Below are positions 60,592 to 64,000 of a stretch of DNA of 64,000 nucleotides, one piece after another (within the stretch, counting starts at the first letter, position 1; the number at the start of each line of letters is the position of its first letter). This DNA comes from an uncultured Elusimicrobia bacterium (GTDB taxonomy: Bacteria > Elusimicrobiota > Elusimicrobia > UBA1565 > UBA9628): the NCBI GenBank assembly GCA_964529095.1, contig CAZGVK010000071.1:3607-67606 (forward strand), in the 5' to 3' direction. The position numbers and the translations under genes are program-made. Below the pieces are notes generated by a model. The model saw only the letters and a list, made by a program, of their open reading frames with translations, searched no databases and was not told the origin of the DNA.

Positions 60592-61350
60592 CTACAGAAA
60601 GATTCTGCCGTTGTCGCCCTGCTTGACCCTGACGGCCAGGCATATCCTCTCTCCGAAAATTCCGCAGGTCACACCCGCGACGCCGCCCTTTACAAGGATG
60701 TCCTGCTTGAGCGGGTAGGCCAAGAGGTCGGCGACCTGGAGGCCCGCGATGTTCTCTGCCTTCTTTTTCAGCTTGAGTTCGCGGGACGTGAAGGCTTCCT
60801 GGAAAGCGGCGGCGCTGACGTGATAGAGCCCAGACTCGACGACCTCCCTATGAACGCGCTTGAGTTCCATATCCTCGGCTCCGCCCCGACTTTCCGCCAT
60901 CACATCCCCACGACTGCCATCTTCGCTGAGAAACTCTCGGTATCGCTCCAGCAGCACGGTCAGGCAATGATGGTAGGGATGGAGAGCGGCCTTGCCGTAG
61001 CGCTCGCTATGAGCCATTTTATCGATCACGATGGTAAAAATCCGATAATCCTGCGCGGCAAGAAACGCGACCAAATCCGAAGCGAACGCCTCATCCCGTT
61101 TCGGATCAGCCAAGACCCCGAAAGCTCCGTTGCGATTGATCAACTCCTTGCGGTGGAAGATGATCGGCTCATCGGGATTGTGCGGGAAATGCTCCTGCTT
61201 CAAGTTTTCAACGTCGGGATGGAACCGAGTTCGGTACGACTCCATTTCAATCGCAACACCGGTCAGCCCCAGGTATCTCTTGGCCGGGTTGCCGAGATTG
61301 TGGTAGGTGTGGTCGCCGGACTCATCGATATAGAGGCGGAATCTTTTCAT
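60592..61350 (-). CDS. DUF3800-family protein
   Basis: The N-terminal LYIDESGD motif is characteristic of DUF3800. 252 aa. It lies in a locally lower-GC segment. Confidence 0.6.
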   Translation of the reverse strand: MKRFRLYIDESGDHTYHNLGNPAKRYLGLTGVAIEMESYRTRFHPDVENLKQEHFPHNPDEPIIFHRKELINRNGAFGVLADPKRDEAFASDLVAFLAAQDYRIFTIVIDKMAHSERYGKAALHPYHHCLTVLLERYREFLSEDGSRGDVMAESRGGAEDMELKRVHREVVESGLYHVSAAAFQEAFTSRELKLKKKAENIAGLQVADLLAYPLKQDILVKGGVAGVTCGIFGERICLAVRVKQGDNGRIFL

Positions 61351-61446
61351 CGGGGCTTCGGCGACATTGGATTATACTGCATGAGGGCCCGTCGTCGCCT
61401 GGATGATCGCATGCTCACAAAGGTGTTGACATTATATTCAATATAA

Positions 61447-62097
61447 TTGCACAATACAACGATAATGAACTATGTTCTGAACCGGGAAGAGTATATCCAT
61501 CGGCCGGTCAAGACTTACGGCCAGGCCTACAACAACTCCGGGCTATCCCAGCCCCGCGAGGAGTTCCTCGCCGAAACCTCGGACTTCATTAAGATATTCC
61601 GACACCTCCACCGATTCGCCATAACGCGCCGCACCCTCCAACTCTACAGCTCCCCTCAGCTCAAGCTCCTGCCCCGACCCATCCACATGGGCGGGCACAA
61701 GTCCTACTACGCGAACCCCGAGCACACGGATCGCCTAGCCGTGGTCATGCACCTTGCGACCAAACTCTTCTTACCACTCAAGACGATCCAGGCCGTGGTC
61801 CGCGTCTATCCCGAGGAGTACTACGATCTGATTCTCGATGGCGTCTTTGCCGCGAACGACCTGGCCGAAATCGCGGAGCATTTCGTGCGCGGCTTCAAGG
61901 TCAAAGACGTTCTCTTCTACAAGGTTTGCCACGTCCTGAAGGCGTTGGACCGACCCTATTGGGGCATGGCCCGGCACGGAAAGGGGGCCAACGAGCAAGC
62001 CGAGCAGCACGTAGACCAAACACTCCTCAAACTGACGCATGAACTTAGACGCTGGATCAAGACGGATAATCGCCTTAAAATGGGTCTTCAGAAGTAG
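61447..62097 (+). CDS. Hypothetical protein (216 aa), divergently transcribed from the DUF3800 gene
   Basis: Clean ORF with coding-like composition and no recognisable motif. The start may be the ATG at 61465 (MNYVLN) rather than the TTG at 61447. The upstream region is AT-rich and contains TTGACA. Confidence 0.45.
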   Translation: MHNTTIMNYVLNREEYIHRPVKTYGQAYNNSGLSQPREEFLAETSDFIKIFRHLHRFAITRRTLQLYSSPQLKLLPRPIHMGGHKSYYANPEHTDRLAVVMHLATKLFLPLKTIQAVVRVYPEEYYDLILDGVFAANDLAEIAEHFVRGFKVKDVLFYKVCHVLKALDRPYWGMARHGKGANEQAEQHVDQTLLKLTHELRRWIKTDNRLKMGLQK

Positions 62098-62414
62098 CCG
62101 GGGCGTTTTTTTGAACAGCATTATTCAATTCTATTGAATAATTATACCTGTGAATAACATGGATCACCCCGCCCCCAATCGCTTGGACAACGCTGCGCGT
62201 TGCCCACAGGTCCACAAGGCCGACGATGAATTTATTTTTGAGCAGAAAAACGACCAAGGACCGGCCAAGGCCGGAACACTCGGAGGTATGCTAAACTAAA
62301 AAAAATCCGGCGTCGCCACACCCTGATCGGCTTGGTCCGACAGGATAATCGGCTTCGACCGTCAACTTGATCGGCTTGACCGAAATCCGCCAGATTGAGC
62401 CAGATTGGGACGCC

Positions 62415-63060
62415 TCACCCGGCCCTCTTCAGATGCCACCGTGCGCCGCGCGCTCGCCCCTTAAGTTCCACAAGCTTCAAGCGTCGGAGTAGATAGAGGT
62501 CTTCGCGGAGACTTCTCGCCGTCGCGCCCGGCTTCAGCAAGGGGAGCATTTCAGCCAACCGGAGCGCGCCAGCCGAGGCGAGTACGTCAAGCAGCTCGCG
62601 TTGCCGGTCCGTAAGGTCATGGCCGATCCTGGTGGGAGGCTGATAGCGGGTCGCGCGGAAGCGGACGATGACCGCTCCCGCGATCTCCTTGATCTCCGGT
62701 CGCGGAAGGCCAGCGCGATCCATCATCTCAGCCATCTTGATCGTGCCGCAGCCCCACGTCTCAATGATTCCGCGCCGGTAGAAAACGCCCGCGATGATGG
62801 GGTTCCAAGGCAAGGATTCGTGCGGCTTGTAGAGGTCCGGGACCGTGAGGCCGAAGTGCAGTGAGCCGGATGAGCTGATCTCCAAGCGGTCATCGTAGAT
62901 CGCGACACCGACCGAACCGCCGCCGATGGAGTAGTCCCGGTGGCAGAAGGCGTTCGCGAGGCCTCGCGAAGAGCGAGCGGAGGGTAGAGCGGGTCATCCT
63001 CGCGTTCGAATAGATTCGGGACCACGCGTCCGGCCACGGGGAGGTGATCCCGGAAGAAGC
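62415..63060 (-). pseudogene. Frameshifted fragment of an ATP-binding / wHTH regulator (AlbA_2 / HATPase_c_4 'RecG C-terminal-like' family)
   Basis: Two overlapping minus-strand frames (62415..62885 and 62723..63109). The C-terminal IETWGCGTIKM and LTDRQRELLDVLASAG wHTH region is typical of this family. The N-terminal AAA/ATPase part is absent. Confidence 0.45.
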
Positions 63061-63355: not shown

Positions 63356-63766
63356 CTACCACGCTGCCTCAACCAGGGCCCGGCGAAGGTGTGCGTTGCC
63401 AACCTTTGTGATTCGTCCTCGCTGCACACTCTCGCCAGAGCTGTACTCACGGCTCACCAAGCCCGTGTAGCCCACGAATTTACGGGCTGACGGGAAGCGT
63501 CGGAAGTCGCGAACCTCAACTGCCAATATCACCGCACTCAACGTGTCCACGCCCTTGAGGCAGCGCAGATTGGCCACCAGTGTTTTCCAGGAGGTCTTCT
63601 CGGCCAAAGCCAAGATCTCGAGATCGAGACCCACCATGCGTGCCTCGATCTCTTCCATGCCGCGCAGATACGATTCGAACGTCCGCGTCTCCGACGCCAA
63701 TTCGAAGCGCAACGCCTTCATCCACGCCCGATGCTTGACGCCCCACGCCTTCGTCGCACGCCACAC
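63356..63766 (-). mobile_element. IS110-family transposase fragment (C-terminal Transposase_20 region), degenerate
   Basis: GVDTLSAVILAVEVRDFRRFPSARKFVGYTGLVSREYSSGESVQRGRITKVGNAHLRRAL is typical of the IS110/IS902 transposase C-terminal domain. It is truncated, and the flanking frames are broken. Confidence 0.6.
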
Positions 63767-64000
63767 CAGACCATGTCTTAGGAGAAATTGCCCCAGACGC
63801 AGTCGCGAACGTAGCCGTTCACTCAGCGCGTCCTCTAGTCAAGAAGATGGCGAGATGGTGGTTCTGCACCCGCACTGCTGCACCCCTGGCAAGAATGTAC
63901 AGTATCTTGTACACTATGGGCATGACTAGAATCGCTCCCGTTTCCTATGTGCGGGCACATCTGCCCGAGATGGTCGCTTCGCTTGGTAAAAAGAGGGGTG

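Follow-up and report, generated by a model that had tools for sequence, protein, structure and literature searches.

The closest described relatives of the locus considered here are RNAs that lie beside genes for DUF3800 proteins. Weinberg et al. 2017 reported eleven unrelated structured RNAs that occur with these genes (DUF3800-I to -XI), several of them ending in terminators, and offered no functional hypothesis for them (PMC5737381). We examine a locus of this kind in a 64,000-nucleotide stretch of contig CAZGVK010000071.1, from an uncultured Elusimicrobia bacterium. This whole stretch is called the window below. In it a DUF3800 gene is met at its 3' end by a small RNA gene on the opposite strand. 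As with the earlier motifs (PMC5737381; Rfam RF02969, RF02968 and others), a structured noncoding RNA adjoins DUF3800, a Rho-independent terminator is often part of it, and multiple phyla are represented. The 2017 motifs lie on either strand, whereas the RNA here is always convergent with the gene, has its U-tail at the stop codon and is a compact structure of three helices. What generally defines a DUF3800-associated noncoding RNA is a conserved, covarying structure consistently beside DUF3800, and that is what we find. The small RNA is an additional member of this known group, and no Rfam 15 family matches it.

Two other kinds of system should be considered. Retron type VII combines a reverse transcriptase, an msr/msd RNA and a DUF3800 protein or fused domain (Mestre et al. 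2020, PMC7736814). It shares with our locus a DUF3800 protein whose predicted fold is RNase H2-like and a dedicated structured RNA in a defence-type setting, but our locus has neither a reverse transcriptase nor an msr/msd RNA. The DUF3800 subfamily here keeps a C-terminal QxxD motif, while retron-linked DUF3800 proteins do without it. Type III toxin-antitoxin systems (ToxIN) are also modules of a protein and an RNA on mobile DNA, and there too an abundant structured RNA is proposed to restrain a nuclease. However, type III antitoxins are tandem repeats that lie upstream on the same strand and are processed by the toxin, whereas the RNA here is single-copy, convergent and downstream (76 of 76 loci). 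The toxin folds differ as well, being Kid/ToxN-like in type III and, by prediction, RNase H-like in DUF3800. The cassette fails the defining layouts of both type III and type I toxin-antitoxin systems.

We argue that the locus is a composite. One part is a cassette made of the DUF3800 gene and its RNA (60484-61350), and the other is a probable MerR-type regulator gene (61465-62097) that belongs to a decayed element. We give this reading, with the cassette acting as an RNA-gated nuclease, a probability of about 0.6. An earlier, sequence-only reading of the window had instead joined the DUF3800 gene to the divergent protein gene as a candidate uncharacterised defence module. Part of that idea stands, since the cassette is accessory and its surroundings mix pieces of mobile elements with toxin-antitoxin or defence genes. 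The part that does not stand is the second component, which is an RNA.

The DUF3800 gene and its convergent small RNA

60484 to 60512, plus strand: promoter of the small RNA (TTGACG, 17-nt spacer, TATAAT), agreeing with the consensus at 11 of 12 positions.
60511 to 60591, plus strand: DUF3800-associated small RNA, as matched by covariance model R1.
60592 to 61350, minus strand: DUF3800 protein of 252 amino acids, predicted to be an RNase H-fold nuclease (Pfam PF12686; AlphaFold2 and Foldseek).

The order 3' of DUF3800, read on the opposite strand, is a near-consensus promoter, two hairpins and a long GC-rich terminator. The terminator's U-tail ends at the DUF3800 stop codon, so the two genes are convergent. 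The RNA itself probably spans about 60519 to 60591, or some 75 nt. Its consensus runs from a 5' AAU through helix P1 (5 bp), AGGUGGAU, P2 (6-7 bp with a GNRA-like loop), AGC and P3 to UUUU, where P3 is the terminator helix of at least 11 bp. The computed folding energy amounts to -44.8 kcal/mol (z = -5.6).

Model R1 was built from 56 distinct copies of the RNA, and it has a single match in the window, at 60511-60591 (90.3 bits, E = 7e-25). Compensatory changes are seen at 14 of the 23 pairs in these 56 sequences. Of all cells 98.6% are paired, against 84.7% in shuffles and 34-59% in slid-partner controls, and 202 cells are changed on both sides where shuffles give 55.8. Since G-U pairs are frequent, only an RNA on the plus strand fits. 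The unpaired AGGUGGAU and AGCGUG segments are almost invariant across phyla; P1 and P2 covary. The promoter is conserved too. In 55 of 65 distinct upstream regions at least 10 of the 12 consensus positions are matched, and the spacing to the RNA core is fixed. The homology that the window shares with its most similar contig (loci L001 and L002) starts exactly at this promoter. Judged by its sequence, it is a conserved promoter of the sigma-70 type.

The distribution of the RNA was examined in 80 metagenomic loci that encode DUF3800 homologues, 46-93% identical to the window's protein. R1 has exactly one match in 76 of the 80, each at E <= 3e-17. This is 76 of 77 assessable loci, because three of the four misses are at contig ends; the fourth has a truncated DUF3800 gene. 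All 76 RNAs are single-copy, lie directly after the gene and converge with it, and their terminators abut the stop codon or overlap it by 0-7 nt. The proteins at matched loci are 46-67% identical to that of the window, and the RNA core is about 90% identical. Over the 80 loci no protein neighbour is conserved, nor was a conserved 5' untranslated region or promoter of DUF3800 found. Other loci that have the MerR-like gene lack the small RNA, which means the RNA travels with DUF3800 and not with the regulator. DUF3800 and the small RNA are a conserved, horizontally mobile unit.

The sequence-only reading had recognised DUF3800 by its LYIDESGD motif, and this was correct. The open reading frame at 60592-61350 carries the motif, its protein starts MKRFRLYIDESGD, and the gene is intact. 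PF12686 is matched over residues 6-214 at 53.7 bits (cut-off 21; E = 4.8e-14). A database search returned 1935 DUF3800 homologues from several phyla. All 41 invariant residues of a 58-sequence alignment are kept, including D9, E10, D110, D149, E153, Q205 and D208. An N-terminal DE and a C-terminal QxxD motif have been described for DUF3800 (PMC7736814). The former is D9-E10 here, within YIDESGD, and the latter is Q205 and D208, within GLQVADLL; all four are invariant in the alignment.

The AlphaFold2 model of the protein has a pLDDT of 94.3. Its top Foldseek matches in the Protein Data Bank (PDB) are the archaeal RNase HII 1eke (probability 1.0, E = 5e-3, TM 0.43/0.48) and human RNase H2A (3puf). 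A sequence-profile search of the PDB turned up no relative with a solved structure. The DUF3800 domains associated with retrons and with Cas12a2 have been modelled in published work, which also arrived at an RNase H2-type fold (PMC7736814, PMC10910872). The protein is predicted to be a nuclease with an RNase H-like fold. PADLOC, NCBIfam and PHROGs gave nothing useful for it or for the 210-residue protein of its divergent neighbour.

The convergent layout invites another line of reasoning. The RNA could be an antisense regulator like those of type I systems, pairing with DUF3800 read-through mRNA, which would then be degraded or terminated, and so controlling the mRNA and not the protein. The genes do converge, the terminator reaches the stop codon, and the hairpin that can be read on the DUF3800 strand has no U-tail, so read-through is plausible. 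But antisense pairing needs no conserved sequence or structure, and yet AGGUGGAU and AGCGUG are near-invariant while P1 and P2 covary. Known type I toxins are small hydrophobic peptides and not nucleases of 250 amino acids. We consider antisense control unlikely.

It is also worth considering the opposite polarity, where the RNA is the harmful or active partner, for instance through AGGUGGAU, and DUF3800 processes or neutralises it. This segment, at 60536-60543, is Shine-Dalgarno-like, and about 7 nt of it are complementary to the 16S rRNA 3' end. In Legionella, transposon sequencing scored a distant DUF3800 gene in an accessory region as essential, like antitoxin genes (10.1101/2020.10.01.323287), which is what this polarity would lead one to expect, and the near-consensus promoter of the RNA agrees with it. 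However, a single distant homologue stands behind this, and the transposon may have had polar effects. Making a toxic RNA from a consensus promoter would burden the cell, and there is no evidence of an RNA target. The reversed polarity seems improbable to us.

Two further roles for the RNA were considered and ruled out. It does not encode a peptide, because indels in the loops shift the frame and no reading frame is conserved; many copies also read GGAUAG or GGAUAA in place of GGAUGG and hence have no AUG. Nor is it a guide as in TnpB or IscB, since neither its 5' nor its 3' side has a variable segment apart from the loops. Rfam 15 has no DUF3800-* family at E <= 10 on 60470-60620 (151 nt) or on 59700-62500. 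Rfam scans of 25 related loci (20 at the gathering score) likewise found no DUF3800 motif, and in these the DUF3800 models had no positive control.

The neighbours of the cassette bear on what it does. Genes for type IIG or type III restriction-modification systems directly adjoin it in 23 of the 80 loci (29%). Where the system is type III, as at L052, the genes run res, DUF3800, small RNA, mod. The boundaries of the cassette are sharp and its contexts are unrelated, being between res and mod, after mtnA, or beside housekeeping genes. One could take this, with the spread over several phyla, to mean the cassette is chiefly selfish. It would then be like a free-standing homing nuclease that has no role in defence, and the RNA would serve mobility or insulation. 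Repeats or target-site signatures were not seen at its ends, though no systematic search for them was made, and the linkage to restriction-modification in 29% of loci suggests a shared function. A chiefly selfish cassette is quite improbable in our view.

At L052 (1026-7476) and ten similar loci the cassette lies between res and mod of a type III system, and at eleven other loci it directly follows the type IIG enzyme gene. The gaps to the restriction-modification genes are about 12-17 nt at the two loci checked (L052 and L095), which suggests co-transcription.

Viral contigs were also searched. A 16-nt core pattern matched 42, of which R1 confirmed one (L135, which also has DUF3800); the remaining matches are chance Shine-Dalgarno-like sequences. 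More distant DUF3800 homologues, about 31% identical, are found on 61 plasmids and in 4 phage records, and in Paracoccus phage Pkon1 the gene is beside the CI repressor. We looked at loci of this kind from a Devosia plasmid, Sinorhizobium pSymA and phages JBD68 and Pkon1 (L142-L145). The RNA-like element at these loci is a different one, but it too is convergent and abuts the stop codon. It is made up of AAAUGG, a hairpin, CGGCGUC, a terminator and UUCGCUUUU:

L142, 2223 to 2330, minus strand of the locus: distant RNA-like element.
L143, 2253 to 2360, minus strand of the locus: distant RNA-like element.
L144, 2190 to 2300, minus strand of the locus: distant RNA-like element.
L145, 2207 to 2301, minus strand of the locus: distant RNA-like element.

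Rfam gave nothing at these elements. The convergent layout with the terminator at the stop codon may be general for DUF3800. A broader proposal is that DUF3800 with a convergent small RNA is a widespread RNA-gated immunity or addiction module, frequently set within restriction-modification operons, with the RNA here as a twelfth class and a terminator-at-stop rule that takes in proteobacterial plasmids and temperate phages. We put this forward tentatively, and would not yet bet on it.

The divergent regulator and the remnant of its element

61426 to 61459, both strands: overlapping divergent promoters with an operator-like dyad.
61426 to 61455, plus strand: promoter driving the MerR-like gene (TTGACA 61426-61431, 18-nt spacer, CACAAT 61450-61455), 10 of 12 positions.
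61459 to 61431, minus strand: promoter facing DUF3800 (TTGTAT 61459-61454, 17-nt spacer, TATAAT 61436-61431), read by eye.
61435 to 61453: dyad TATTCA-N7-TGCACA, two mismatches from TATTCA-N7-TGAATA, inside the spacer of the regulator's promoter.
61465 to 62097, plus strand: probable MerR-type helix-turn-helix regulator of 210 amino acids, identical to database protein P0001.
62111 to 62142, plus strand: putative orphaned MerR-style promoter/operator (TTGAAC 62111-62116, 19-20-nt spacer, AATAAT).

The divergent open reading frame that ends at 62097 is real, and so is the TTGACA noticed between the two genes. The protein had been given 216 amino acids, starting from a TTG at 61447. We place the start at ATG 61465 because the identical database protein has 210 amino acids, all 26 homologues align from MNYVL, and the TTG falls inside the promoter spacer of the gene. 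The control region, thought to be 96 bp, becomes 114 bp with this start. At the homologous loci that share this promoter, just 6-9 nt separate the -10 element from the ATG, which makes a leaderless mRNA probable for the regulator.

This protein had been described as having no recognisable motifs, which does not hold for its family. The search gave 27 homologues, and many of them carry Pfam MerR_1 (PF13411, precomputed); the two that were rescanned, P0013 and P0016, pass the cut-off of 21.6 with 26.9 and 24.1 bits. Their invariant core, RRTLQLYSSP...GGHKSYY...P.HT.RLA, is arranged like the helix-turn-helix and wing of a MerR protein. The AlphaFold2 model has a pLDDT of 81.6, and the C-terminal half of the protein has no match. 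A profile search of the PDB with the family gave no relatives, and no PADLOC-DB 2.0 family was matched at E <= 1. The homologues that are named by organism all come from Elusimicrobia or Elusimicrobiota metagenome-assembled genomes, as do 6 of 6 matches in genome collections. The protein is probably a MerR-type regulator, of a small family found only in Elusimicrobiota, although its own fold match is weak. It resembles the MerR/CueR-type regulators and CvkR in its divergent neighbour gene, and probably also in an N-terminal winged helix-turn-helix of the MerR_1 kind and an operator-like dyad in an 18-20-nt spacer. It is unlike a typical MerR in being so divergent that it falls below Pfam detection, in its apparently leaderless mRNA, and in belonging to a recombinase-linked family confined to Elusimicrobiota.

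Is this regulator a dedicated partner of DUF3800 in a two-protein defence module, as the sequence-only reading had it? The two genes and the region between them are kept in one other contig (L001, L002, L021) at 83.6% DNA identity, and their divergent promoters overlap. However, among 18 loci with the partner gene, which represent 8 distinct elements, the two are adjacent in L001/L002 alone. From the other side, the partner is present at just 1 of the 80 DUF3800 loci, and that one is the same contig as L001/L002. In every other element examined the partner family comes with other cargo (DndB/HNH, unknown operons, IS3), and it is a MerR-type regulator tied to a recombinase module wherever sequence continues, L018 excepted. 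The co-occurrence data largely refute a two-protein module, and we consider it very unlikely indeed.

What the regulator does belong to can be seen from its other neighbours. Wherever sequence continues (L001-L008, L010-L012, L015, L016, L018), the next gene on that strand encodes a protein of 274 or 363 amino acids, with weak matches to the Replic_Relax and PadR winged-helix families. A single-sequence search of the PDB gave no relatives of the 274-residue protein. Next come a small protein and a serine recombinase of 541-556 amino acids in all these loci but L018, the most distant; the branch of L010-L012 and L016 has a tyrosine integrase in place of the serine recombinase. The serine-recombinase module is present in the intact relatives L001, L004-L008 and L015. 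The upstream side varies, with DUF3800 in L001/L002, DndB, HNH and MT-A70 in L004-L006, an unknown operon in L007-L009 and IS3 in L010. A constant downstream side and a variable upstream side are what one would expect if the partner is a backbone gene facing a cargo slot. By this gene order, the MerR-like regulator is part of the backbone of an integrative element found in Elusimicrobiota. Among known systems the intact relatives come close to small integrative elements that carry a large serine recombinase. They run regulator, winged-helix protein, small protein, recombinase, and have variable cargo on the opposite side.

The window has only part of such an element. At the DNA level it matches L001 over 60475-62159 and nowhere else, with 83.6% identity. 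Searching the 64-kb window with tblastn found no 274-residue protein, no 61-residue protein and no recombinase, and the long hairpin region of the intact relatives is absent. Compared with these elements, the window has kept the regulator and the cargo, while the recombinase, the 274-residue gene and the hairpin region are missing. The window keeps the left arm of the element; the recombinase module was lost and the element is truncated. Since the homology with L001 ends at 62159, the operon that the promoter at 62111-62142 would drive is also absent. In related elements the equivalent region stands ahead of the replication and recombination operon.

In the intact relatives the long hairpin is conserved in a gap of about 480 bp between the MerR-like and 274-residue genes. 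That of L001 (6790-6915, with equivalents in L004, L007, L013 and L015) has a fold energy of -112.6 kcal/mol over 221 nt (z = -10.8), and after it comes a tract rich in purines with hardly any C. The hairpin may serve as a replication origin or a recombination site, or it may be an RNA.

The orphaned promoter has a perfect dyad, TATTCA-N7-TGAATA at 62122-62140, in a TTGAAC-N19/20-AATAAT arrangement, and the dyad sits within a 10-3-10 palindrome at 62120-62142. Of the 9 homologous loci examined, 7 have the regulator's promoter with a dyad in its spacer and an ATG 6-9 nt later (L001, L004, L007, L010, L013, L015, L017), and nothing of this kind is visible in the extracts for L014 and L018. The site equivalent to 62111-62142 is kept after the gene in L001, L004, L007, L010, L013 and L015. 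The half-sites of the two putative operators co-vary. This is clearest in L010, with TATGCA-N7-TGCATA upstream and TATGCA-N7-TGCAcg downstream, and it is looser elsewhere. We read this as one regulator that would control two promoters, its own and that of the downstream replication/recombination operon.

The surrounding region

The cassette and the regulator were said to lie in a foreign patch of lower GC content. The GC content is indeed lower at 60100-62400, but the drop is only modest. It is 55.4% there and 58.6% in the whole window, at the 2.3rd percentile among 2.3-kb windows.

The att repeats reported on one side are real. They are a direct repeat of 143 nt (56668-56809 and 59941-60083, 98.6% identity) that includes the 3' part of tRNA-Phe. 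The two copies bracket a 3.3-kb islet of tRNA-Phe, a tyrosine integrase, AbiEi and AbiEii, the last two matched by PADLOC at 1e-56 and 2e-59. This islet looks like a complete integrated element with both att sites. The DUF3800 block begins 390 nt past the repeat copy at 59941-60083. The open reading frames at 60084-60474 and 62075-62257 have no Pfam match.

Iteron-like repeats had been proposed on the other side. A repeat exists, but it is merely a two-copy repeat of 16 nt, 88% identical. The copies are CACCCTGATCGGCTTG (62319-62334) and CAACTTGATCGGCTTG (62363-62378), with a third, partial ATCGGCTT between them. They fall outside the block common to the window and L001, and no sign of function was found for them.

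The regulator and IS110 remnants farther to the right were also seen correctly. The first is a minus-strand open reading frame of 156 amino acids at 62415-62885, which matches the C-terminal part of HATPase_c_4 alone. HATPase_c_4 is a domain of RecG-like or Schlafen-type regulators. The second, of 136 amino acids at 63356-63766 on the minus strand, matches the transposase domain of the IS110 family. These two appear to be pieces of genes. Beyond the IS110 piece, just past window position 64000, comes a toxin-antitoxin pair of ParE and PhdYeFM (L141, 3192-3769), which makes the region a mosaic of toxin-antitoxin, defence and mobile-element pieces.

The cassette as a proposed RNA-gated nuclease

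We infer that the cassette is most likely an RNA-gated nuclease with toxin-antitoxin-like behaviour. DUF3800 would be a metal-dependent nuclease. It would bind its cognate small RNA, and the RNA would either restrain the nuclease or license it. The result would be a toxin-antitoxin-like cassette, or one for abortive infection or defence. In one element lineage, that of the window and L001, the cassette is the cargo, and there the overlapping divergent promoters would also tie transcription of DUF3800 to the MerR-type regulator.

It must be noted that several points weigh against this. RNA expression, RNA-protein binding, nuclease activity and toxicity are each things we infer for this subfamily. 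The RNase H match of the model has a TM below 0.5, and no PADLOC-DB 2.0 family matches the DUF3800 protein at E <= 1. Many related cassettes sit among housekeeping genes. The Legionella result hints at a protective nuclease more than a toxic one. On the regulator's side, the window's own 210-residue protein has no Pfam match at E <= 1, and the top PDB match of its model, the MerR-type CvkR (7xn2), is weak (E = 0.26). The minus-strand promoter of DUF3800 is below the scan threshold, and its -35 element is poor. As for the dyads, 18% of shuffles of the window give two matches by chance.

Accessory genomes often carry DUF3800 genes, which turn up repeatedly in the company of retrons, Cas12a2/a3 systems and at least eleven unrelated structured RNAs. 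The window corrects an annotation trap, because the adjoining "unknown" gene regulates a decayed integrative element and is not part of the module. What is left is a clean, minimal case, with an intact gene for the predicted nuclease, one 75-nt RNA, a defined promoter and terminator, and a fixed geometry. The role of the DUF3800 RNAs is a long-standing question, and with this locus it becomes directly testable with two small constructs.

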